From an uncultured Chloroflexia bacterium (GTDB taxonomy: Bacteria; Chloroflexota; Limnocylindria; QHBO01), in assembly GCA_963837425.1 (NCBI GenBank), contig CAWINH010000002.1, positions 355,175-419,174 on the forward strand: 64,000 nucleotides of DNA, written 5' to 3'. Numbering within the stretch: the stretch's first letter is position 1; each line of letters starts with the position of its first letter. A program made the position numbers and the translations under genes. The notes beneath the pieces were generated by a model. That model did no database searches. It was not told the origin of the DNA and was given only the letters and a program-made list of their open reading frames with translations. Shown here one piece after another: positions 19,974 through 64,000 of this stretch.

Positions 19974-20333
19974 TCACCACTCCAGCGTGGCGGCCCCGGC
20001 CGCGAGCTGCTCGACGATGAAGGCCGCGTTGACGATTCGGGCGCCCGGGATGAGGTCCTGCTCGGTGATGCCGCGCGGCTTTGTGCACGCGCCGCAGGCC
20101 CAGATCTCACCGCCGTTGGCAACGTACTGGCCGATGAGCTCGCCGAGCGGCGGCAGCCCGTCCTTGGCGATCTCGTCAGCATAGCCGCGCGTGGCCAGCC
20201 GGACTCCCTCGATGGTCAGCAGCACGGCGGCCGGCTGCTCCGCGGTGGCGGCGATGTTCGCGACGACGAAGGGCATGGTGGCCCGCTCGGCGTCGTCGCG
20301 GCCGGTGGTGGCGTGGGTAATGATGCGCGTCAT
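19974..20333 (-). CDS. DsrE/DsrF-like sulfur-relay family protein
   Basis: 119 aa, with PFVVANIAATAE...GEIWACGACTKPRGI containing the conserved Cys pair of the DsrE fold. It is similar to the second copy at 60011-60382. Confidence 0.6.
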   Translation of the reverse strand: MTRIITHATTGRDDAERATMPFVVANIAATAEQPAAVLLTIEGVRLATRGYADEIAKDGLPPLGELIGQYVANGGEIWACGACTKPRGITEQDLIPGARIVNAAFIVEQLAAGAATLEW

Positions 20334-20809: not shown

Positions 20810-21913
20810 TCAGCCGGCGGCGCGCAGGTAGGCGGCCACCGCCGCGGTGCGGGCCGACCGACCGGCCAGCCCCAGCTTGAGATAGGCGTTCGAGAGATGG
20901 CGTTCCACCGTCCGTGCGGAGAGTCCAAGCGTCGCCGCGATCTCCTGGTTTGAGCTGCCATCGGCGGCCAGCCCGATGATCTCGCGCTGTCGTGCGCTGA
21001 GCTGCAGGACGTCGCCGGCCGGCTGCACCGAGTGGGCCATGCGGTCAGGCTCGAGGAAGGCACTCACCTCGGCCATGAACGTTCGCCACGCGGGCTCATC
21101 GGCGAGCAGGATGTGGTTCGGAGATTCAAGTGGCACGAGTCGCGCTCCGGGGACGCGCGAGGCCAGGTCCAGGCCCTCGTCGAACGGCACGCAGCGGTCG
21201 TCGACGGCGCTCAGCACCAGCGTCGGCGTGCGGATGGCATGGACCCGATCGCGGAGGTCGATGCGCTGGCGCTCGATCCTGCTCTGGAGCATGTTGTCGG
21301 TCGAGGTTGACATCCGCTGCAATTCATCGAACCAGGCGAGCTGCTCCTCGGTTGCCCCGGGGATGAACATGGTCGTGAACACGCGGCGGAAGATTGGGTC
21401 CGGTTTGGCCCAGCCGGCGCGAATCATGGCGCGGAAGGCGACCTCGTCCTCCGGCGGCTCGGGGAAGTAGTCGGGCGCCCCATAGCACGACCCCCCATAC
21501 ATGATCATGCGCGAGACCCGGTCCGGGTGCCGCAGGGCGTACTCGAGTGCCACCGAGGACCCACCCGACATGCCCAGCAGTGCGAAGCGCTCGACGCCCA
21601 CGCTGGCCACCACCGCCTCGAGATCCGCGACGCGGGCGTCGAGAGAGAAGTCGTCCACCGTCCACTCGGAGAGCCCAAATCCGCGCTCGTCGTAGCGAAT
21701 CAGGGTGCTGACGGCTCCCAGGTCCTCCAGGAAGTGGCGCCAGACGGGACTCTCCCAATCATGCTGCAGGTGGCTGAGCCAGCACGAAACGACGATCAGT
21801 GGCGGTCCGCTGCCATGGGTGGCGTAGGCGAGCCGCACCCCGCCCTGGCCTCGACAGAATCGGATCTGCTGGGGAGGTGCCCCTCGCGCGCGGCCGGACC
21901 CGGTCACGGACAT
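20810..21913 (-). CDS. Alpha/beta-hydrolase domain fused to a C-terminal LuxR/GerE-type HTH domain (putative regulator)
   Basis: The N-terminal domain has GMSGGSSVALEYALRHPDRV (nucleophile elbow). The C-terminus has EIIGLAADGSSNQEIAATLGLSARTVERHLSNAYLKLG (LuxR HTH). Confidence 0.6.
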   Translation of the reverse strand: MSVTGSGRARGAPPQQIRFCRGQGGVRLAYATHGSGPPLIVVSCWLSHLQHDWESPVWRHFLEDLGAVSTLIRYDERGFGLSEWTVDDFSLDARVADLEAVVASVGVERFALLGMSGGSSVALEYALRHPDRVSRMIMYGGSCYGAPDYFPEPPEDEVAFRAMIRAGWAKPDPIFRRVFTTMFIPGATEEQLAWFDELQRMSTSTDNMLQSRIERQRIDLRDRVHAIRTPTLVLSAVDDRCVPFDEGLDLASRVPGARLVPLESPNHILLADEPAWRTFMAEVSAFLEPDRMAHSVQPAGDVLQLSARQREIIGLAADGSSNQEIAATLGLSARTVERHLSNAYLKLGLAGRSARTAAVAAYLRAAG

Positions 21914-21968: not shown

Positions 21969-22700
21969 TCACGGCAGCGGCGGCAGGCTCCCGATCCAGC
22001 CCGGCACCAGGATCACCACGGTGCCGAGCGATAGCGCGAGCTGACCGCGGGGACGAGGCGTGCGCCGAGCCGCCATGTCTTCGCGAGACATCACGCCGCC
22101 CAGGGCGGCCATCAGCGTCACGCTCCCCACGCCCACGCCGAACATGACGAGCATCAGCGCCGAGCAGCACCCCAGGCAGTAGATTCCGTTGGCGATCCCA
22201 GGCGAGCGCCGCGCACGCCGGGCGCGTGCGGTGCCAGACGAACTGCAGCGGGTTGCGGTACTCGGTGAGGATCGCTCCTTGAGGGGCGTGAGCTGGAAGA
22301 TCCCGGCGCCGATGAGCAGGGCGCCGCTGATGAGCTGCTTGTGGGCTGCCAGCCAGCCCATCGATCCACCGTGAGTGAGGGCGGATCGCCGCCAGCGCAG
22401 CGCCGCGAAGCGGTCCAGATCACGAAGTAGGCGCCGATGAACGGACCACGATGTCGCGGCGTGGCGATGCCGCCGTGATGCTGGCGTAGATGCGGACACC
22501 GGCAGGGTGCTGGGCAGCATCATGGCGCCGGTCATCAGCTGCCAGATGAGGGAAGATGGGGATGGCGACCAGGATCGGCAGGTTTCCGCCCTCGATGATC
22601 GCGTGGTGGCTGATGAGGTCGCTGCGCCCGGCCAGCACCAGGCCGATGGCCAGTGCCCAGCAGAGCCACGGTTGCCAGGATCCACGTCTGGGGTCGCGCG
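21969..22700 (-). pseudogene. DUF2182-family integral membrane protein (putative metal-binding), with several frameshifts
   Basis: The C-terminal GIANGIYCLGCCSALMLVMF motif and LTPLKER are in frame. ILTEYRNPLQFVWHRTRPACAALA is readable only in another frame. The N-terminal half lies in the 22420-23478 frame. Confidence 0.4.
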
Positions 22701-23384
22701 AGGCGCCGCGATGGCGCCTCCCGCTGTCCGCTGCACGGTTTCCATCTCCAGCCTCGAAGACGAAGCTGCCTGGACCGAGTTGAGGCCGGCGAGGTCGATA
22801 TCGGCCATGCCGTGCGCCGTCTCCGGGCGCCGGAAGATCGAGGCCTTGCCCGGATAGGCCGGCGATCCCGGGATGGTGGAGAAGACCGAGTTGTTGAGCG
22901 TGGTCGTCCCGGTGGGGCCGGAGAGCGGACTGAGTCGCGCCTCGATGGCGTCGCCGATCTTCAGCGTGCCCTCGCCGCCATCCACGGTGAAGGTGATCGG
23001 CGCGCGCTCCACGGCCACGACGTCGCCGATGAGCGCGGCCAGGTCCGCGATGCCGCCGCCGAGCTGCCCGGTGAAGACCTTGAGCAGCGCGTCCTGCTGC
23101 TCCTGGCTTGACGCGTCGTCCACGTACACCACCGCCTTCCAGTTGCCGGCGAAGATGTTTCCGGGGACGTGCACCGATAGCCCAACGGTCAGGCCAGAAA
23201 CGTCGACCCCCTCGACCGTGCCGGCATCGACCTGCCAGGCCAGGGAGGCCTCGCACGTGCCGCCATCGGGGTCGTCGCCGATCGAGCAGGGGCAGATCGC
23301 GTTGCAGGTGCAGACCTCCAGCAGCCGGCCCTCGACGTGGTAGCGCGTGGCGGTGGCCGGATCGTTCGTGTTCGCGACAGTCAT
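22700..23384 (-). CDS. DUF1326-family protein, the usual partner of DUF2182
   Basis: MTVANTNDPATATRYHVEGRLLEVCTCNAICPCSIGDDPDGGTCEASLAW shows the Cys-rich N-terminal motif of DUF1326. A GGAGA RBS lies 8 nt upstream of the ATG at 23384. The 3' end is approximate. Confidence 0.5.
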
Positions 23385-23610
23385 GCGTGCGTCTCCTGTA
23401 TTCCGCTGCTGGTGCGGGACCACGTGTCCCCGTGTTCTGCACGGCCGCCGGGTGCCCAAAGGCGACCCGGCTTGCCATGCACCAACGAGGCTAGGTGCAC
23501 CGATGGAGGCCGGCATCCGCGAGACCACCCAATCTGCAGCGGTGGCCTGATCGGTTACGGCGGTCTGCACGCACTGAAGCGGGCAGAGGTTGGGCCTGGG
23601 TGGTGAGGCC

Positions 23611-24747
23611 TCAGCCGCCGTCTGTCAGGCGCATCTCGACAGCTCGCGCCGCAGCACCCGCGCGGGCCGCCTTACCGCTCAGGCCCAGCTTCACGTACAC
23701 GTTGGAAAGGTGCCGCTCGACGGTCCGGCTGCTGAGGTTCAGCTCCGCGGCGATCCGCTGGTTCGAGTAGCCCAGCCCCACCAGGTCGAGGACCGTCAGC
23801 TCTCGCCGGCTCAGGGCGCCGCGAACCGAGGCCACCGGGAGGCGCGGAGTCGCCGGCCGTCCCGCCCCCACGAACGCGTCCACCAGCTCGAAGAAGCGAG
23901 GCCATGCGTCGTCGGTCGGCTGCAGGACGTGGTTCCTGCCGTGGAACGGGACGAAGCGTGCGCCGGGGATCGCCGCGGCAATGGAGCGGCCCGATTCGAA
24001 GGAAACGACATGGTCGTCGTCGACATGCATGACCAGGGTGGGGACCCGGACCTCGGCTGCCAGCTGCCGTACGTCGAGATCGTCGTCGACCTCGTCGAAG
24101 CGCACCGCGTTTTCGGGTGAGGTCGTGAGGCGCATGAGCTCGTCGTACGCGTGCAGCAGCTCCTCGTTCCCATCCGGGACGAAGCTGCTCGTGAAAACGC
24201 GCCGGAAGACCGGGTTGTCACTGCCCCACGCCAGGCGGATCAGCGTGCGCATGGCGGCCACTTCCTGGCGCTGCTGCTCGGTGATGTCGCGGGCCCCGTA
24301 GCCCATCAGGTAGCCGCCCAGGATGATCAGGTGTGATACCCGCTCAGGATGCCGCGCGGCGTAGGCGATAGCCACCGGCGCTCCCTGGGACATCCCGAAC
24401 AGGGCGAAGCGCTGCATGCCGGCGGCGTCCACCACCACCTCGAGGTCTTCGACCCAGGCCTCGAAGGAGATGTCCTCCACGTCGCGGTCGGAGAGTCCAC
24501 ACCCCCGATCGTCGTATCGCAGGACGGTGAAATGCCTGCCGAGCTCAGTGAGCCACGGATGCCAGATGGTGCTCTCCCAGTCGTACTGGAGGTGGGTCAG
24601 CCAATGGGGGGCTCGGACGAACGGGTACCCGCGCCCGTGGATCGCATAGGCAAGCCGCGTCCCGTCCGGGGTGGTCGCGAACGCGATGCGCTGCTCCTGG
24701 CGCCGGACGCCGATGGGCGATCCGCCTCCGCTTGCCATCCGATCCAT
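23611..24747 (-). CDS. Alpha/beta-hydrolase-LuxR HTH fusion regulator, paralog of 20810-21913
   Basis: GMSQGAPVAIAYAARHPERV plus the C-terminal LTVLDLVGLGYSNQRIAAELNLSSRTVERHLSNVYVKLG; about 45-50% identical to the other copy. Confidence 0.6.
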   Translation of the reverse strand: MDRMASGGGSPIGVRRQEQRIAFATTPDGTRLAYAIHGRGYPFVRAPHWLTHLQYDWESTIWHPWLTELGRHFTVLRYDDRGCGLSDRDVEDISFEAWVEDLEVVVDAAGMQRFALFGMSQGAPVAIAYAARHPERVSHLIILGGYLMGYGARDITEQQRQEVAAMRTLIRLAWGSDNPVFRRVFTSSFVPDGNEELLHAYDELMRLTTSPENAVRFDEVDDDLDVRQLAAEVRVPTLVMHVDDDHVVSFESGRSIAAAIPGARFVPFHGRNHVLQPTDDAWPRFFELVDAFVGAGRPATPRLPVASVRGALSRRELTVLDLVGLGYSNQRIAAELNLSSRTVERHLSNVYVKLGLSGKAARAGAAARAVEMRLTDGG

Positions 24748-57191: not shown

Positions 57192-57267
57192 TGGTGGAGC
57201 TGGGGGGACTCGAACCCCCGACCCCCTGCATGCCATGCAGGTGCTCTCCCAGCTGAGCTACAACCCC
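57192..57267 (-). tRNA. tRNA-Ala (anticodon GGC), CCA-encoded, G3:U70 identity pair
   Basis: The reverse complement reads GGGGTTGTAGCTCAGCTGGGAGAGCACCTGCATGGCATGCAGGGGGTCGGGGGTTCGAGTCCCCCCAGCTCCACCA. This folds into a canonical cloverleaf with anticodon loop ATGGCAT. Confidence 0.85.
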
Positions 57268-57642: not shown

Positions 57643-57953
57643 CCTCGAGCGTCACGCAGCGACGACAACCGCGAACGAACGGTGCCGGATGCCCCGCTCA
57701 CGGGCCGTTTCGTCACCGAGCGACGCCGACGGCGAACGAACCGGGCTGTCCTTCGCCGATAGCGTCGCAGGCTGACGGCCGGCAGGGCGCGGACCGCGGG
57801 CCGCTGCGGGTTCTTTTCCTCGAGCGTCGCCCAGCGACGACAACCGCGATCGAACGGTGCCGGATGCCCCGCGCACGGGCCGTTTCGTCACCGAGCGACG
57901 CCGACGGCGAACGAACCGGGCTGTCCTTCGCCGATAGCGTCGCTGGCTGACTC
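57643..57953. repeat. Two ~135 bp direct repeats (about 96% identical), period about 176 bp, upstream of tRNA-Ala
   Basis: Copy 1 at 57643-57777 and copy 2 at 57819-57953 share cctcgagcgtc..cagcgacgacaaccgcga[a/t]cgaacggtgccggatgccccgc[t/g]cacgggccgtttcgtcaccgagcgacgccgacggcgaacgaaccgggctgtccttcgccgatagcgtcgc[a/t]ggctgac. Confidence 0.7.
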
Positions 57954-58012
57954 CCGGCAGGGCCTGGGAGTTGGCGGCCAGGCGACAGGGTGCAACTCAC
58001 GGCGCGTGCTCG

Positions 58013-58533: not shown

Positions 58534-59307
58534 ATGGGTCGCTCGCTCGGGCTCAGCCTCGCCCTCATCTCGGTTGTGCTCCTCGCGTCGTGCGGCGGCG
58601 CCTCGCCGACGCCTGCCGATCCCCGGGCCACGGTGACGAGCGGGATCGAGGCCACGCTCGGCGCGCACACCTTCCACCTGGCCGCCACCGTGGACGGCAC
58701 GCTGAACGTGGCCGAAACGGGCGGGACGATCACGCTGGACGGAACGACGCTCGAGGGTGATGTCGACATCGATCGCGGGCGGACGCACCTGACCTTCGCC
58801 GTTCCGGCGTTGATGGGGATCAGCGGCGAGGTGATCACGATTGGCGCCGATGACTACCTGAAGACGAGCGTCACGGGGTCCGGCTGGGTGCACTCGCAGG
58901 CGACCGCCGGCGACCCGCTCAGCGACGTGACTGATCCGAACGCGGCCCTGACCGCCATCGAGGACCTCATGGATGCGGCCGGCGTCACGCTCGTCGCGAT
59001 GGACAGGACCGATTGCAGTGCCGGTCCCTGCTCCCACGTGGCCATGACCATCCCGGCCGACCAGCTGCAGGGAGCGGCGGATCTAGCCGGAGGGCTCGTC
59101 CCCAGCGCCGCATTCGCCGATGGGCTCGTGCTGGACCTCTACTTCTCCACGAGCGATGGGCGGCTCGCCGAGGTCTCGACCGGGATCGACAGTGCATCGG
59201 TCGGGTCGCTGACGCTTGGCGTCACCTTCAGCGCCTGGGACCAGGCGCTGATCATCGAGGCGCCTCCCGCTTCCGACATCCAGCAGGGGACCGGCCTTCC
59301 CTTCTAG
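58534..59307 (+). CDS. Lipoprotein of unknown function
   Basis: Lipobox LLASCGG followed by a beta-rich 230 aa domain. Confidence 0.5.
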   Translation: MGRSLGLSLALISVVLLASCGGASPTPADPRATVTSGIEATLGAHTFHLAATVDGTLNVAETGGTITLDGTTLEGDVDIDRGRTHLTFAVPALMGISGEVITIGADDYLKTSVTGSGWVHSQATAGDPLSDVTDPNAALTAIEDLMDAAGVTLVAMDRTDCSAGPCSHVAMTIPADQLQGAADLAGGLVPSAAFADGLVLDLYFSTSDGRLAEVSTGIDSASVGSLTLGVTFSAWDQALIIEAPPASDIQQGTGLPF

Positions 59308-59339
59308 CCCCCTCGTCTCCCCGGCCGAAGTTCCCATGA

Positions 59340-59420
59340 AGATCGGGCCGTTCGGCACTGCTGCACCCATATAGATGCGTAAAGCATATAGAGCGAAAGT
59401 GCCTATAGATGGGTCACACA
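59340..59420 (+). promoter_or_regulatory. AT-richer segment with three copies of a [C/G]ATATAGA[T/G]G motif upstream of arsR; candidate operator
   Basis: gcatatagatgcgtaaagcatatagagcgaaagtgcctatagatgg; the local AT content stands out against the 70% GC background. Confidence 0.3.
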
Positions 59421-59596
59421 GCGACCACGTGAGACGGAGGTCAGAACCCATGCAACCCGAGCTGGGACGGCGGCCCTCGTGGTTTCGTCGTCTCTTTTCG
59501 TCCGGCGACTGCCGGTGCTGGCGCGTGGGGTCACTCCTGCTGCGCCTGTCCCGGAGCCGGTGATCGTGCGGCCGTGGGCCTGAGAAGGAGCTGATC

Positions 59597-59974
59597 ATGC
59601 TCCGCGCGTCCGAAGACATCTACGCCATGCAGGCCTCGATCCTGCGGACTCTCGGCAGTCCCCGGCGACTCGAGATCGTTCACCTGCTGGGCGAGGGTCC
59701 GCTCGAGGTTCATCGGCTCGCCCGGCTCCTCGAGATCGCTCAGCCGACCGTCTCCCAGCACCTTGCCGCGATGCGCGCGGCCGGCCTGGTGGAGCCGCTG
59801 CGCGACGGGAGAGAGGTCCGGTACCGACTCACCGACGATGCCATCCGCCAGGCCTGTGACCAGATGCGCGAATTCCTGTACCGGCGCCTGAGCCGATTGA
59901 GCCTTCTTGCGGCTCCCACCCATGACGGCCACGCGGAGCAGGTCGCTCCGCTCGTCGCGGGGAGCCGCAGGTAA
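59597..59974 (+). CDS. ArsR/SmtB-family transcriptional regulator
   Basis: LRTLGSPRRLEIVHLLGEGPLEVHRLARLLEIAQPTVSQHLAAMRAAGLV. Confidence 0.65.
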   Translation: MLRASEDIYAMQASILRTLGSPRRLEIVHLLGEGPLEVHRLARLLEIAQPTVSQHLAAMRAAGLVEPLRDGREVRYRLTDDAIRQACDQMREFLYRRLSRLSLLAAPTHDGHAEQVAPLVAGSRR

Positions 59975-60010
59975 CGAAACCAACGAGACCACGAGAAGGA
60001 GCACCGAACC

Positions 60011-60382
60011 ATGGCAGATCACGAGAAGCTGGTCATCATGGCCACCCACGGTCCCGAGGACCCCGAGCTGGCCACGATCCCGTTCGTCATGGCCTGCGCC
60101 GCCCTTGCCTCGGATGTCGAGGTCGTGATGGGCTTCCAGGCCAACGGTGTGTGCCTCGTGCATCGCGGCGAAGCCGAGCACGTGGCCGCCCCGGAGTTCC
60201 CGCCGCTCACCAAGCTCATGACCGATTTCGTCGAGCTGGGCGGAACGATGCTCGTCTGCGGCCCATGCATCAAGAGCCGCGAGATGCAGCCCGAGCTCGA
60301 TCTGGTCGATGGCGCCGAGGTCGTCGCCGCAGGGCGATTCGTCGCGGAGATCACGTCGGCCACCAACAGCCTCGTCTACTAG
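60011..60382 (+). CDS. DsrE/DsrF-like sulfur-relay protein
   Basis: LVIMATHGPEDPE...GGTMLVCGPCIKSRE. Confidence 0.6.
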   Translation: MADHEKLVIMATHGPEDPELATIPFVMACAALASDVEVVMGFQANGVCLVHRGEAEHVAAPEFPPLTKLMTDFVELGGTMLVCGPCIKSREMQPELDLVDGAEVVAAGRFVAEITSATNSLVY

Positions 60383-60405
60383 CGAACCGCAAAAGGAGCC
60401 ATGAC

Positions 60406-60675
60406 ATGACCCTCACCGCACCACAGACGACCGAGCTCGAAGGGCTCAGCGCAGCAAAGATCATCGACGCCCGTGGCAGCGCCTGCCCCGGCCCGCTCCT
60501 CGAGGCGAAGAAGGGGATGGGTACCGTCGCGATCGGCGATGTCATCGAGATCTGGTCGAGTGATCCCGCCACCAAGAAGGACATCGGCGCCTGGTCGGCC
60601 AAGGTCGGTCATGAGTTCCTGGGCTCCGTCGAGGCCAGCGGCTACGACCGCGTCCTCGTTCGGCGCGGCAAGTAG
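60406..60675 (+). CDS. TusA-like sulfur carrier protein
   Basis: IDARGSACPGPLLEAKKG (CPxP motif); AAAGGAG RBS. Confidence 0.6.
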   Translation: MTLTAPQTTELEGLSAAKIIDARGSACPGPLLEAKKGMGTVAIGDVIEIWSSDPATKKDIGAWSAKVGHEFLGSVEASGYDRVLVRRGK

Positions 60676-60690
60676 CGAGGCCACGGTGCC

Positions 60691-61143
60691 ATGAGCGCGC
60701 TCTCCGTCATCGAGAAGCCCCCGGAGGTGGGGGACGGTCGGGATCGTAAGCCCCGGATCCTGGTCTTCTCCACGAACAACATCTCCGATCCGGGCATCGA
60801 CATGGCGGGGAGCGCGCACATGCACTACTCGACCGCCGTCACCGTGATCAGCCTGCCGTGCACCAGCGGCATCAAGCCGCGCTGGATCGTGCATGCCATC
60901 GAGCGCGGATTCGATGGCGTCTTCATCGCATCCGATGGAGAAGAGTGCGCCTACCTGGCCGATTGCAGCGCGCGCGCGGCGCGAATCGTGGCGCGCGCCC
61001 AGGAGCTGCTCACCGAGCGCGGATTCGAGCCGCAGCGATTGAAGATGGCGGCCATCTGCTCGGTCTGCGCCGAGGCGTTCACGAAGCACATGCGGCAGTT
61101 CTCCGAGAGCCTGTCAGCGCTCGGGCCGTCGAGCAAGGGGTGA
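60691..61143 (+). CDS. MvhD/FlpD-like iron-sulfur subunit, degenerate at the N-terminal Cys motif
   Basis: RILVFSTNNISDPGIDMAG lines up with the MvhD CNWCSYAGADxAG region but lacks the Cys residues; later ISLPCTSGIKP...ADGVFIASDGEECAYLADC. Confidence 0.5.
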   Translation: MSALSVIEKPPEVGDGRDRKPRILVFSTNNISDPGIDMAGSAHMHYSTAVTVISLPCTSGIKPRWIVHAIERGFDGVFIASDGEECAYLADCSARAARIVARAQELLTERGFEPQRLKMAAICSVCAEAFTKHMRQFSESLSALGPSSKG

Positions 61144-61146
61144 GCC

Positions 61147-63882
61147 ATGGACTATGACGTTCTCGTCATCGGCGGCGGCATCGGCGGCATGGAGTCGGCC
61201 CTGAAGCTCGGGGACATGGGCTACTCGGTCGCCATGGTCGAGAAGGAGGCCAGCGTCGGCGGACGCATGATCCTGCTGAGCAAGGTCTTCCCGACGCTCG
61301 ACTGCGCGAGCTGCATCTCAACGCCGAAGATGGCGGCGTCGGTCCATCACGACAACATCACGCCGTTCACCTACGCCGAGGTGTCCGGCATCCGGCGAAC
61401 TCCGGACGGTCATTTCCGCGCGACGGTGCGCCAGAAGCCCCGATTCGTGGATACGGACGCATGCACCGGTTGCCAGCTCTGCGAGCTGGCCTGCACGGTG
61501 GCGGTGCCAGACCAGTTCAACGCGGACCTCGTCGCGCGCCGCGCGGCGTACATCCCGTTCCCGCAGGCGGTCCCCAAGAAGGCGGTCATCGAGCGTGCCG
61601 GCACCTCCCCGTGCTCGTACACCTGCCCGGCCGGGATCAAGGCCCACGGCTACGTCTCGCTCATCCGCAGCGGCGAGTATGAGAAGGCGTTCCAGCTCGT
61701 CCTCGACGCCACGCCACTGGTCGGGACCCTGGGTCGCGCCTGCTACGCGCCGTGCGAGGCCGACTGCAGCCGAGGATCCCTCGAGGGACCCTTGCCCATT
61801 CGCCGTCTGAAGCGGTTCGCGGCCGACGAGCACTACGCCAGCCATGACGGGCCGGGCGTCGAGGCGCCGCCGGCCAACGGGCACCGGGTCGCCGTTATCG
61901 GCTCCGGACCGGCGGGCCTGACCGCCGCCTGGCAGCTGGCCCGCTCGGGGTACGGCGTGAAGATCTTCGAGGGGGCCTCCGAGCCGGGCGGCATGCTGCG
62001 GTTCGCGATCCCCGGCTATCGGCTTCCGTCCGTGGTCGTGGAGCGCGACATTGCCAACGTCACCGCGCTCGGGGTCGAGATCGCATGCGACTCCCCGGTG
62101 CATGACCTCGAGGCGCTCCATGCGGACGGCTACGACGCGATCCTCGTGGCGACCGGCACGCCGCGCTCGCAGGTCCTCGGCGTCCCGGGCGAGGATCTGG
62201 CCGGCGTGGCCACCGGCCTGGAGTTCCTCCGCGACGTGAAGCTCGAGACGGCACCCGATCTCACCGGAAAGCGGGTAGTGATCGTGGGTGGCGGCAACGT
62301 GGCCATGGATGCCGCGCGCACCGTCCGTCGGCTGGGTGCGGCGGAGACCATCGTCGCCTACCGCCGCGGTCGCGAGGAGCTGCCGGCTCATGCCGCCGAG
62401 GTGGCCGATGCCGAAGCCGAAGGCGTGCGATTCGAGCTGCAGGTGGCCCCCGCCGAGGTGCTGGGAGATGCGCAGGGGCGCGTCACCGGGCTGCGCTGCG
62501 TGCGGATGGCGCTCGGCGCGCCGGATGACTCCGGCCGCCGCCGGCCGGAGGCGATCCCCGGCAGCGAGCACGTCATTGCCTGCGAGGCCGTGATCGCCGC
62601 GATCGGCATGTCGCCGGATCTCGACGCCTTCCCCGGAGAGCCGCTGGTAGACGAACGAGCCTTCGCCGCCGACCCGCGCACGCTCCAGACCGCGGTGCCC
62701 TGGGTCTTCGCCGCCGGCGACGCGGTCAGCGGAGCGTCGGACATCACCCGCGCCGTAGGGGCCGGGCGGCGGGCGGCGTACATGATCGACCACTGGATCA
62801 GCGACAGCACACTGGCGGGTGCGCAGTTTGACGCGATCGACGATCGCCTCGTGGTCGTGGATCGGTCGAGCGTAATCGCCCGGCAGTCGGCCTACACTCG
62901 CCACGACCCGACGCCGCCGGGGATCTCCCTGGTCGCCGAGCCGGACGGCTTTGCCGAGCTCGAGGCGCCGCTCACCGAGGACGAGGCGCGCGCCGCGGCC
63001 GGACGCTGCCTGGACTGCGGCGTCTGCTCCGAGTGCGGCGAGTGCATCGCCGCCTGCCCGGCGGACGCTATCCACCTCGACATGCGCGAAACCGAGCGCG
63101 AGATCGAGGTCGGCGCTGTCGTTCTCTCGACCGGCTACAAGCTGTTCGCCGCCGACCTCAAGCCGGAGTATGGCTATGGAACCTACAAGAACGTGATCAC
63201 CGGCATGCAGATGGACCGGCTGCTGGCGCCCACGCGGCCGTACAACACGATCCTCCGACCGGGCGACGGCAAGGTCCCGGAGCGGATTGGCTACGTGATG
63301 TGCACCGGCTCGCGCGACAAGACCGTCGGAAACCCCCTCTGCTCCCGCTTCTGCTGCATGTACTCCATCAAGCAGAACGAGCTGATCATGGGCGCCCTGC
63401 CGCTCGCCGACGTGACGGTCCACTACATGGACATCCGGGCCGCGGGAAAGCGCTACAACGAGTTCTACGAGGGGGCCCGCTCAATGGGCGCCAACTACGT
63501 GCGCGGTCGCGTGGCCGAGATCACCGAGAAGGAGAACGGTGACCTGCTCGTCAAGTACGAGGATCTCGACAACGGTGGGGTGATCTCCGAGGCCGAGTAC
63601 GACCTCGTCGTCCTCGCCGTCGGCGTCCAGCCCAACCGCGACGTGGAGACCCTCTTCTCCGGCGGCGGCCCGGCCCTCACCGACTCCTACTACGTCGCGG
63701 AGGCGGACGAGGACCTCAACCCGGGCCAGACCAGCCTACCCGGGGTCTACGTGGCGGGTGCGGCCTCCGGGGCCAAGGACATCGCCGAATCGATCCTGCA
63801 CGCAGGCGCGGCGGTCGCCCAGGTCTCGGCGCACCTCGAGCGCGAGCGCACGATCGCGGCGGGCGAGAAGGTGCCGGCATGA
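61147..63882 (+). CDS. HdrA-like FAD/Fe-S flavoprotein with an inserted GltD/NfnB-like NAD(P)H-binding module
   Basis: DVLVIGGGIGGMESALKL; CTGCQLCELAC; the GltD-type segment CPAGIKAHGYVSLI...GRACYAPCEADC...VAVIGSGPAGLTAAW...KRVVIVGGGNVAMDAA; the ferredoxin motif CLDCGVCSECGECIAACP; and the HdrA hallmark GYVMCTGSRDKTVGNPLCSRFCCMYSIKQN. Confidence 0.65.
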   Translation: MDYDVLVIGGGIGGMESALKLGDMGYSVAMVEKEASVGGRMILLSKVFPTLDCASCISTPKMAASVHHDNITPFTYAEVSGIRRTPDGHFRATVRQKPRFVDTDACTGCQLCELACTVAVPDQFNADLVARRAAYIPFPQAVPKKAVIERAGTSPCSYTCPAGIKAHGYVSLIRSGEYEKAFQLVLDATPLVGTLGRACYAPCEADCSRGSLEGPLPIRRLKRFAADEHYASHDGPGVEAPPANGHRVAVIGSGPAGLTAAWQLARSGYGVKIFEGASEPGGMLRFAIPGYRLPSVVVERDIANVTALGVEIACDSPVHDLEALHADGYDAILVATGTPRSQVLGVPGEDLAGVATGLEFLRDVKLETAPDLTGKRVVIVGGGNVAMDAARTVRRLGAAETIVAYRRGREELPAHAAEVADAEAEGVRFELQVAPAEVLGDAQGRVTGLRCVRMALGAPDDSGRRRPEAIPGSEHVIACEAVIAAIGMSPDLDAFPGEPLVDERAFAADPRTLQTAVPWVFAAGDAVSGASDITRAVGAGRRAAYMIDHWISDSTLAGAQFDAIDDRLVVVDRSSVIARQSAYTRHDPTPPGISLVAEPDGFAELEAPLTEDEARAAAGRCLDCGVCSECGECIAACPADAIHLDMRETEREIEVGAVVLSTGYKLFAADLKPEYGYGTYKNVITGMQMDRLLAPTRPYNTILRPGDGKVPERIGYVMCTGSRDKTVGNPLCSRFCCMYSIKQNELIMGALPLADVTVHYMDIRAAGKRYNEFYEGARSMGANYVRGRVAEITEKENGDLLVKYEDLDNGGVISEAEYDLVVLAVGVQPNRDVETLFSGGGPALTDSYYVAEADEDLNPGQTSLPGVYVAGAASGAKDIAESILHAGAAVAQVSAHLERERTIAAGEKVPA

Positions 63883-64000
63883 CCGCGGCGCAGCCAGCCC
63901 GTCGCATCGGCGTCTACGTCTGCCACTGCGGCGGCAACATCTCCGACTACGTCGACGTGGAGCAGGTGGCCGCTGCAGCCGCGCGCGAGGGGGACGTCGT
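63879..64000 (+). CDS. hdrA: Second HdrA-like gene (partial, N-terminus only), starting with the HdrA N-terminal domain motif
   Basis: RIGVYVCHCGGNISDYVDVEQV matches the IGVFVCHCGTNIAG N-terminus of HdrA; ATGA overlap with the upstream gene. Confidence 0.45.
   Translation, partial: MTAAQPARRIGVYVCHCGGNISDYVDVEQVAAAAAREGDV

Follow-up and report, generated by a model that had tools for sequence, protein, structure and literature searches.

Which redox system is encoded by the genes that close a 64,000-nucleotide (nt) stretch of DNA from an uncultured Chloroflexia bacterium (contig CAWINH010000002.1, positions 355,175 to 419,174; hereafter, the window), and what do two sulfur carriers do there beside an HdrA-type flavoprotein? 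The final 4.4 kb of the window hold six closely spaced genes, all on the forward (+) strand, which an earlier sequence-only reading had proposed to be a sulfur-linked, flavin-based electron-bifurcating system. We found that the window stops inside a conserved operon of 8-9 genes with the order (ArsR)-DsrE-TusA-MvhD-like-HdrA(NfnB-inserted)-HdrA2-small winged-helix protein-QmoC-like, followed by a rhodanese or a hemerythrin gene. The encoded complex is predicted to be membrane-anchored, Qmo-like, and quinone-linked and not a soluble Hdr enzyme, because a QmoC-like subunit follows the HdrA genes and no HdrB/CCG subunit does. We consider the chances about evenly balanced that this Qmo-like HdrA complex splits electrons from carrier-bound sulfane sulfur or sulfide at an HdrA flavin, between menaquinone and NADP+.

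The cluster opens with an ArsR/SmtB-family transcription factor of 125 amino acids (aa) (59597-59974; PF01022, E 2e-15), which is followed by a 123-aa DsrE-family sulfur carrier (60011-60382; PF02635, E 8.5e-14) with the sequence VCGPC and by an 89-aa TusA sulfur carrier (60406-60675; PF01206, E 1.8e-18), in which ACPGP holds the CPxP active-site cysteine. For TusA, we used the ATG at 60406, which has AAGGAG 7 nt upstream, and not the mechanical open reading frame (ORF) start at 60151. Next come a 150-aa MvhD/FlpD-like iron-sulfur adaptor (60691-61143; PF02662, E 1.9e-30) and a 911-aa type III HdrA (61147-63882; Pyr_redox_2, E 2e-40; Fer4_20, E 4e-16). The last gene is a second HdrA paralog, HdrA2, of which the first 40 codons (63879-64000), reading MTAAQPARRIGVYVCHCGGNIS, precede the window end that truncates it. 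Successive genes are separated by 36, 23, 15, 3, and -4 nt, the HdrA2 start overlapping the end of the 911-aa gene through an ATGA at 63879, and Shine-Dalgarno-like sequences lie 5' of the starts. G+C content stays near 70% along the whole window and does not shift at the cluster. The sequence-only reading had placed all six genes correctly, and the motifs that it quoted (CGPC, CPGP, CxGSRD...CSRFCC, and the HdrA N-terminal motif IGVYVCHCGGNI) were all found.

The genes beyond the end of the window, namely most of HdrA2, the small protein, and the QmoC-like subunit, were read from relatives and not from the window's own contig. Our comparison set comprised 85 loci: 81 from species-representative genomes, three further long contigs, and L085, a JGI metagenome contig that shares 95.5% DNA identity with window 60887-64000. 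L085 continues into an HdrA paralog of at least 585 aa, whose first 40 residues differ from the partial gene of the window at one position. The other 84 loci (81 + 3) have a constant gene order of TusA, MvhD-like, HdrA/Nfn, HdrA2 (~580 aa), an 80-90-aa protein, and a ~390-aa protein. From TusA to the QmoC-like gene, the genes are co-directional and present in each of the 85 loci with sufficient contig, apparent absences all falling at contig edges. We conclude that the six window genes and the downstream genes form one operon. Its hosts are Chloroflexota (Limnocylindria), Actinomycetota, and Thermaerobacter, among which the fused HdrA/Nfn ORF is found at 67-76% identity; the Limnocylindria are abundant soil and freshwater bacteria, and Propionicimonas sp. 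T2.31MG-18 and Thermaerobacter are cultured carriers. Matches confirmed by tblastn among GTDB species genomes number at least 401, and the signature small protein forms 3,152 clusters at 90% identity in metagenomes.

The 911-aa flavoprotein matched PDB entries of HdrA with E 3e-101 (8rvv_A) and E 3e-97 (5odc_A), and its alignment to HdrA fell into two blocks, residues 1-150 against HdrA 143-290 and residues 623-897 against HdrA 289-565. Its flavin adenine dinucleotide (FAD) domain is the thioredoxin-reductase-like domain of HdrA; the protein has neither the N-terminal domain of HdrA nor its C-terminal ferredoxin domain. The intervening part (approximately residues 151-622) is a complete NfnB/GltD/StnC-type module for NADP(H), FAD, and two [4Fe-4S] clusters: residues 154-633 aligned to StnC residues 102-574 (9bov_A, E 5e-99), and residues 151-552 aligned to NfnB and GltD (NfnB 4ylf_B, E 3.5e-79; 5jca_L, E 2.5e-71). 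Alignment to HdrA is interrupted at residues 150 and 622-623, which places the module inside HdrA's inserted ferredoxin domain, between its two CxxCxxCxxxC motifs. The sequence-only reading had recognized the GltD/NfnB insertion but had placed it after the FAD domain.

The fusion that it described is genuine. The ORF runs uninterrupted through 880-954 aa in 85/85 loci, which rules out a missed stop, a frameshift, or a separate GltD gene as its source. All 22 predicted cluster-ligand cysteines, C56 included, are invariant in these 85 loci, as are C719-x-G-S-R-D and C732-S-R-F-C736-C737. The protein also keeps D-C53-A-S-C56, in which C56 aligns with Cys197 of HdrA. The NAD(P)H-site motifs G381-G-G-N-V-A386 (GxGxxA) and Y405-R-R were invariant in a 38-sequence alignment, suggesting, by the criterion of PMC12054007, that the NfnB/GltD module prefers NADP(H) over NAD(H). 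An AlphaFold2 model of the 911-aa protein (38-sequence alignment) had a mean predicted local distance difference test (pLDDT) score of 65, with Fe-S regions below 50, and a predicted template modeling (pTM) score of 0.44, and it was not used for geometry.

In relatives, the gene after the 911-aa ORF proved to be a full HdrA2; the sequence-only reading had noted its opening HdrA motif. HdrA2 is complete in 73 relatives and was confirmed in the near-identical contig L085, where it shows both terminal domains (the C-terminal one with 2x[4Fe-4S]) along with the FAD site and the HA4 cysteines. HdrA2 of L001 aligned to HdrA 5odc_A residues 4-234 and 313-642; neither the inserted ferredoxin domain nor DCxxC is present in this alignment or in the relatives. 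The two paralogs are complementary, HdrA2 having the N- and C-terminal domains without DCxxC and the 911-aa protein showing the converse. Chadwick et al. reported that one HdrA lends its Cys197 as a ligand to the partner's N-terminal cluster and that tandem hdrA genes with complementary loss of the N-terminal domain and Cys197 point to obligate heterodimers (PMC9012536). Because our pair fits this rule exactly, we infer that the 911-aa HdrA and HdrA2 form an obligate heterodimer, to which the 911-aa protein would bring C56, as the equivalent of the Cys197 ligand, and the inserted ferredoxin domain.

The ~390-aa protein of the relatives matched the NCBIfam model qmoC with E 1.2e-57 over model positions 5-360 of 360, at a score of 196 bits, which is under the 300-bit equivalog cut-off of NCBIfam. 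Its N terminus aligned to HdrC (8rvv_C, E 8e-16), and it contains eight invariant cysteines in two CxxCxxCxxxCP motifs (two [4Fe-4S]), four invariant histidines, and approximately six hydrophobic segments. No operon protein matched the CCG (HdrB) domain PF02754. Pfam-annotated flanks of 10 kb cover four loci (L001, L082, L083, and L084), and no HdrBC, FlxABC, hydrogenase, AprAB, LbpA, or NfnA genes were annotated in them. The sequence-only reading had asked whether hdrB/hdrC, lbpA/lipoate genes, or a rhodanese follow downstream. Of these, the relatives provided the rhodanese: within the subgroup most like the window (ArsR-DsrE-TusA order, 74% identity), it replaces the hemerythrin gene 3' of the QmoC-like gene on the same strand, whereas hdrB/hdrC and lbpA/lipoate genes were not found in the four annotated flanks.

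An 80-90-aa, cysteine-free, winged-helix-like protein with the motif W-V-M-G-x-R-R-x-G is invariantly present between HdrA2 and the QmoC-like subunit (L001 14445-14693). The 82-aa version gave sub-threshold matches only to winged-helix families of Pfam, its best PDB profile match had E 0.096, and nothing was found in NCBIfam or PADLOC; its metagenome clusters are annotated as hypothetical, MarR, IclR, or DprA/Smf. Directly 3' of the QmoC-like gene, most Limnocylindria-type loci (48/85) carry a hemerythrin-HHE gene on the same strand (L001 15930-16424), and a PadR regulator is often found near it (45/85 loci).

The MvhD-like protein aligned over its full length to MvhD (5odc_D, E 7.6e-14), but it lacks the canonical cysteine set (N-terminal CxxC, MCSG, and GCxxGDCHY): STNNIS stands where canonical MvhD has the N-terminal CNWC, and an aspartate takes the place of the GGC cysteine. 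The sequence-only reading had called the protein degenerate. We found instead five rearranged cysteines, C57, C86, C92, C123, and C126, that are invariant in 79/79 orthologs; C57 and C86 are retained from canonical MvhD, and C92, C123, and C126 are new. Among 1.84 billion representatives, the MvhD-like proteins form a tight subfamily at 45-77% identity, with canonical MvhD at 38% or less. The C-terminal C-S-V-C is the variant typical of a wider MvhD subfamily (P0246, P0252, P0280, P0298, P0303, and P0308), in which the N-terminal CxxC is lost and a C-terminal C-[ST]-x-C is gained, and this pattern suggests an alternative cluster-ligand arrangement that reaches beyond the present operon family. 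Since the five cysteines are invariant and several intermediate proteins share C-[ST]-x-C, the MvhD-like protein is a rewired cluster-binding variant, with one conserved cysteine more than a cluster requires, and not a degenerate one.

The sulfur carriers are integral to the operon and not merely adjacent to it. Wherever the contig extends far enough, TusA lies directly 5' of the MvhD-like gene, and its C27 is invariant in 78/78 orthologs. Of the 76 assessable loci, 74 have a DsrE-family gene, of the DsrE and/or DrsE_2 type, on the same strand within 2.6 kb upstream; actinobacterial loci have a DrsE_2-type gene between the MvhD-like and HdrA genes. C83 and C86 of DsrE, a protein of DsrE3-like size, are invariant (45/45 orthologs), and all three DsrE types have invariant cysteines, the DrsE_2-type paralogs one each. 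Sulfur- and thiol-related genes recur in the flanks, with rhodanese in 25, OsmC in 19, TauE in 15, and a sulfide:quinone oxidoreductase (SQR)-like gene in 6 of the 85 loci.

ArsR is found upstream in 56/76 loci. Its C87, in the alpha-5 region, is invariant in 56/56 orthologs, and a second cysteine occurs in 27% of the sequences; the conserved sensing-cysteine pair of BigR/SqrR-type persulfide sensors was not found in the 56 orthologs. The protein scored 79.6 bits with the NCBIfam model HTH_metalloreg (NF033788; cut-off 55) and 54.6 bits with the BigR model (cut-off 155). The operon is probably under the control of a thiol-sensing ArsR, a plausible role though not one of the canonical two-cysteine type.

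How does this operon relate to known systems? The sequence-only reading had held that it differs from sHdr, Flx-Hdr, and Qmo. The first two parts of this claim stand, as the operon and the annotated flanks show no HdrB/CCG, FlxABC, or LbpA. The third does not, because two HdrA-like flavoproteins, an MvhD module, and a QmoC-like subunit make up a Qmo-type architecture. QmoABC, the quinone-interacting membrane-bound oxidoreductase of sulfate reducers and some sulfur oxidizers, also pairs HdrA-like flavoproteins with an MvhD-type module; its QmoC, for which the operon has a candidate counterpart, joins an HdrC-like 2x[4Fe-4S] domain to a NarI/HdrE-like di-heme membrane domain, and the complex ties the quinone pool to cytoplasmic sulfur metabolism. 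Unlike in QmoABC, the MvhD of the operon is a separate protein with altered cysteines, one flavoprotein carries the NfnB/GltD NADP(H) module, HdrA2 retains the full N- and C-terminal domains of HdrA, and a small winged-helix protein is added. The partners are TusA/DsrE in place of AprAB (in the four loci whose genes carry Pfam annotation, AprAB and Sat genes were absent from the surrounding 10 kb), and the hosts are Chloroflexota (Limnocylindria) and Actinomycetota instead of sulfate reducers. The domain make-up of the operon flavoproteins presumably differs from that of QmoA and QmoB.

The fusion itself is not new, contrary to what the sequence-only reading had implied. Chadwick et al. reported HdrA-GltD fusions, HdrA9-11, in ANME-1 (PMC9012536), and Lyu et al. 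described nine archaeal sequences as "type III HdrA," found with HdrBC or MvhADG and read as NADH-preferring from GxGxxG (PMC12054007). In these proteins from ANME-1 and Bathyarchaeota, as in ours, an NfnB/GltD-like module of ~470-500 aa interrupts the inserted ferredoxin domain (PMC12054007, PMC9012536). The operon version differs in being bacterial, in having GxGxxA and YRR, read as NADPH-preferring, in lacking the N- and C-terminal HdrA domains, and in being paired with HdrA2, a QmoC-like subunit, TusA, and DsrE. Its context is also different from that described for type III HdrA (methane- or alkane-metabolizing archaea with HdrBC or MvhADG), as we found no HdrB or hydrogenase in the operon.

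MvhAGD-HdrABC, the electron-bifurcating heterodisulfide reductase of methanogens (5ODC, 8RVV), recognizably shares with the operon the HdrA fold with its FAD site and HA4 cysteines, both ferredoxin domains (inserted and C-terminal), the MvhD adaptor, the HdrC-like domain, and the three-port wiring logic. However, the operon lacks HdrB and hydrogenase, two complementary paralogs take the place of the HdrA homodimer, and the heterodisulfide and ferredoxin ports are predicted to be replaced by quinone and NADP(H) ports. sHdr (TusA/DsrE3/LbpA) resembles the operon in the genetic coupling of an HdrA-family flavoprotein to TusA and DsrE-type carriers, at times with a rhodanese, and it too occurs in aerobic Chloroflexota, for example in a T. 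roseum cluster. It differs in having HdrB1/B2, HdrC1/C2, and lipoate-binding proteins and in its short sHdrA without MvhD, NfnB insert, and QmoC; neither LbpA nor lipoate-assembly genes were annotated in the four flanks. FlxABCD-HdrABC shares only an MvhD/FlxD-like protein with the operon, in which FlxABC and HdrBC were not found. The alignment of residues 151-633 spans the full NfnB or the StnC N-terminal module and includes the FAD, NADPH, and cluster motifs. As the module is internal to HdrA and no NfnA partner (FAD/NAD + [2Fe-2S]) or StnAB is present in the operon or the annotated flanks, it is not expected to act as a transhydrogenase of the NfnAB/StnABC kind. FixABCX, a membrane-associated system that bifurcates from NADH to quinone and a low-potential acceptor, offers a functional analogy only, being flavin-based and found in aerobic bacteria with quinone as the high-potential partner (PMC5861303); it is Etf-based, belongs to an unrelated protein family, and does not involve sulfur carriers.

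The route of electrons can be sketched from the canonical complex, in which they pass from MvhD via the ferredoxin domain at the C terminus to FAD and from there along two branches. One leads through the cluster of the thioredoxin-reductase domain to HdrBC, and the other leads through the N-terminal cluster to the inserted ferredoxin domain and on to ferredoxin (PMC9012536). For type III HdrA, Lyu et al. modeled the GltD insert as barring ferredoxin access and acting as an NAD(P)H port (PMC12054007). The idea, raised in the sequence-only reading, that two bifurcating flavins are coupled is speculation when set against this published modeling. Transferred to the operon, the first port would lead through the HdrC-like iron-sulfur domain and two b hemes of QmoC to menaquinone, in place of HdrB and the heterodisulfide. 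At the second, the ferredoxin exit would be capped by the NfnB/GltD module, which would bind NADP(H). The third, the MvhD-type port, would have no hydrogenase and would face TusA and DsrE, with a rhodanese added in the window-like subgroup; we assigned it to the sulfur carriers because TusA and DsrE are the sole other conserved partners. Carrier-bound sulfane sulfur or sulfide (~-270 mV) would thus give electrons via the MvhD-like protein, and the HdrA flavin would split them between menaquinone and NADP+.

Textbook potentials are -74 mV for menaquinone, -320 mV for NADP+, and about -270 mV for S0/HS-. Menaquinone and NADP+ average approximately -197 mV; bifurcation would thus suit donors close to -270 mV, and the arrangement is most simply read in the oxidative, bifurcating direction. 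Several points weigh against this proposal. By sequence, the operon conserves no subunit of known sulfur-redox chemistry (HdrB/CCG, DsrK, AprAB, or a molybdo- or siroheme enzyme), and the two-electron route from a persulfide or sulfide into an Fe-S adaptor is unexplained. The QmoC-like protein scores under the equivalog cut-off (196 versus 300 bits), the cysteine pair that marks known persulfide sensors is missing from ArsR, and the three downstream genes were observed in relatives only and not in this window. Heterodimer, cofactor content, and every electron path are predicted from sequence, as is the function of each family member, and the AlphaFold model of the fusion is too weak for testing geometry. 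Finally, a reverse, confurcating direction and a sulfur-independent role remain competing readings.

We regard the confurcating direction as a less likely alternative. NADPH, through the NfnB module, and menaquinol, through QmoC, would together reduce TusA/DsrE-bound persulfide or polysulfide to H2S, clearing reactive sulfane sulfur or freeing sulfide for assimilation, in parallel with a Qmo that feeds a cytoplasmic sulfur reductase. The architecture is the same as for bifurcation, and Qmo in sulfate reducers runs from quinol toward cytoplasmic sulfur chemistry, which we counted in favor of this direction. An ArsR with an invariant cysteine beside TusA, DsrE, and rhodanese is also reminiscent of operons responsive to reactive sulfur species, and thiol- and stress-related neighbors are common (OsmC in 19/85 and hemerythrin in 48/85 loci; thioredoxin, a CsoR-like regulator, and VKOR in L084). 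The energetics argue the other way: donors averaging about -197 mV would have to reduce S0/HS- at about -270 mV, which is uphill, although the potentials of protein persulfides are uncertain. Moreover, a large heme/Fe-S membrane complex would be costly where thioredoxin or low-molecular-weight thiol systems reduce persulfides, and reversing the direction does not supply the catalytic sulfur site, which was not identified among the operon proteins for this direction either. A reduction of disulfides, as suggested in the sequence-only reading, is unsupported because the operon has no CCG domain and so lacks the catalytic subunit of a disulfide reductase.

It is unlikely, in our estimate, that the module works independently of sulfur, either as an NADPH:menaquinone oxidoreductase or in a Fix-like bifurcation from NADPH to menaquinone and a low-potential acceptor in which ferredoxin or another partner uses the MvhD port, with TusA/DsrE only co-regulated or supplying sulfur to build or repair its Fe-S clusters. 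This would agree with the identified redox domains, which without exception serve NAD(P)H, quinone, or electron transfer rather than sulfur chemistry, with the hydrogenase, Flx, or MetFV partners that MvhD-type modules join elsewhere (PMC9012536, PMC5736913), and with hemerythrin-like proteins, possible iron-center repair proteins, that follow the operon in 48/85 loci. Against it stand TusA, which directly precedes the MvhD-like gene in all assessable loci, and the DsrE-family genes in 74/76, which lie within the operon in actinobacterial loci, together with the invariant carrier cysteines. Sulfur-trafficking neighbors recur as well (rhodanese, TauE, SQR-like, and a second TusA/DsrE set), and no gene for a ferredoxin or another acceptor is conserved.

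An ordinary Mvh-Hdr, Flx-Hdr, sHdr, or Qmo-AprAB system that merely lies beside carrier genes, or a fusion artifact, is highly improbable and already contradicted: the individual domains all come from known families and JGI labels the homologs plainly as "heterodisulfide reductase subunit A," but the operon has no CCG domain, the four annotated flanks contain no HdrB/CCG, FlxABC, hydrogenase, LbpA/lipoate, or AprAB/Sat genes, and the fused ORF is intact in 85/85 loci from three lineages at 67-76% identity with conserved gene order. A standard Hdr, Flx, or Mvh locus was ruled out by the downstream genes, which encode HdrA2, the small protein, and the QmoC-like subunit with no HdrB/CCG. The sHdr-type cluster of T. 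roseum, with HdrBC, LbpA, and EtfAB, is a different system, and an anti-phage system was rejected with PADLOC.

Returning to the bifurcating direction, a more specific version of it would place the sulfur-facing site on the MvhD-derived Fe-S protein itself, whose extra cysteine could work as in ferredoxin:thioredoxin reductase, and not on a subunit of the HdrB type. The operon would then encode a bifurcating energy module, in soil and freshwater bacteria from aerobic lineages, that leads from sulfane sulfur on TusA/DsrE (or from sulfide) to menaquinone and NADP+. We hold this version to be doubtful; if it were true, cells could make NADPH from reduced sulfur directly, without reverse electron transport.

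The HdrA-GltD fusion, Qmo, sHdr with TusA/DsrE3, and heterodimeric HdrA are each already known. What is new is the combination of a type III HdrA, a complementary HdrA2, a variant MvhD, the small protein, and a QmoC-like subunit with TusA/DsrE. No published description of the bacterial operon was found in our literature search, the reach of which did not extend to the subscription review of Appel et al. 2021. To our knowledge, HdrA-based electron bifurcation is nearly exclusive to strict anaerobes, and we know of no partner of Qmo other than adenosine 5'-phosphosulfate (APS) reductase. The operon unites a predicted HdrA heterodimer, a putative NADPH port, a putative quinone port, and a TusA/DsrE relay in bacteria of mainly aerobic lineages. 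If electrons were exchanged between carrier sulfur, menaquinone, and NADP(H), the sulfur cycle would gain a new route and flavin-based bifurcation a new use. Database annotations of its proteins are generic or wrong ("heterodisulfide reductase subunit A," "FAD-dependent oxidoreductase," "MarR regulator," "DprA") and conceal the system from metabolic reconstructions.

Upstream of the operon, an AT-rich patch with three CATATAGA/CTATAGAT repeats lies at 59367-59410 (+), ~190-230 nt 5' of arsR. The same octamers occur within 180 nt 5' of arsR in ~15 of 56 related loci, from genomes of ~70% G+C, which marks the patch, on weak evidence, as a candidate promoter or operator. A scan of 59200-64000 gave no sigma-70-like promoter and no meaningful terminator, and no inverted repeat was found 5' of arsR.

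The surroundings of the operon in relatives varied. Within 10 kb past the operon, the closest long relative (L082 16025-22047) has two rhodaneses, two methyltransferases, a TauE exporter, and DUF1634; ArsR-DrsE_2-TusA-DsrE occurs there a second time, on the opposite strand. The genome of the Propionicimonas isolate encodes a 518-aa SQR-like flavoprotein convergent to the operon (L078 16968-18524, -). Thermaerobacter has an ArsR gene after the operon, followed by Mrp-antiporter-like and NiFe-hydrogenase/complex-I 49-kDa-like genes (L083 16199-22724) that look like a membrane complex of the group-4 hydrogenase or Mbs type. The neighbors in L084 include genes for thioredoxin, a CsoR-like regulator, and VKOR.

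Elsewhere in the window, a 146-nt direct repeat is present in two copies that are 95% identical (57643-57788 and 57818-57963), their starts 175 nt apart. The repeats stand in a non-coding-looking stretch without an Rfam match, beside a tRNA-Ala(GGC) gene (57192-57267, -). A second, stand-alone DsrE-family gene (19974-20333, -; PF02635, E 1e-14) encodes a protein that is 33% identical to the DsrE of the operon. Its neighbor, a DUF1326/PpoB2 protein (21969-23570, -), is not obviously sulfur-related. Two paralogous alpha/beta-hydrolase-LuxR(GerE) fusions of 367 and 378 aa lie in the same region (20810-21913 and 23611-24747, both -), ~1.7 kb apart.

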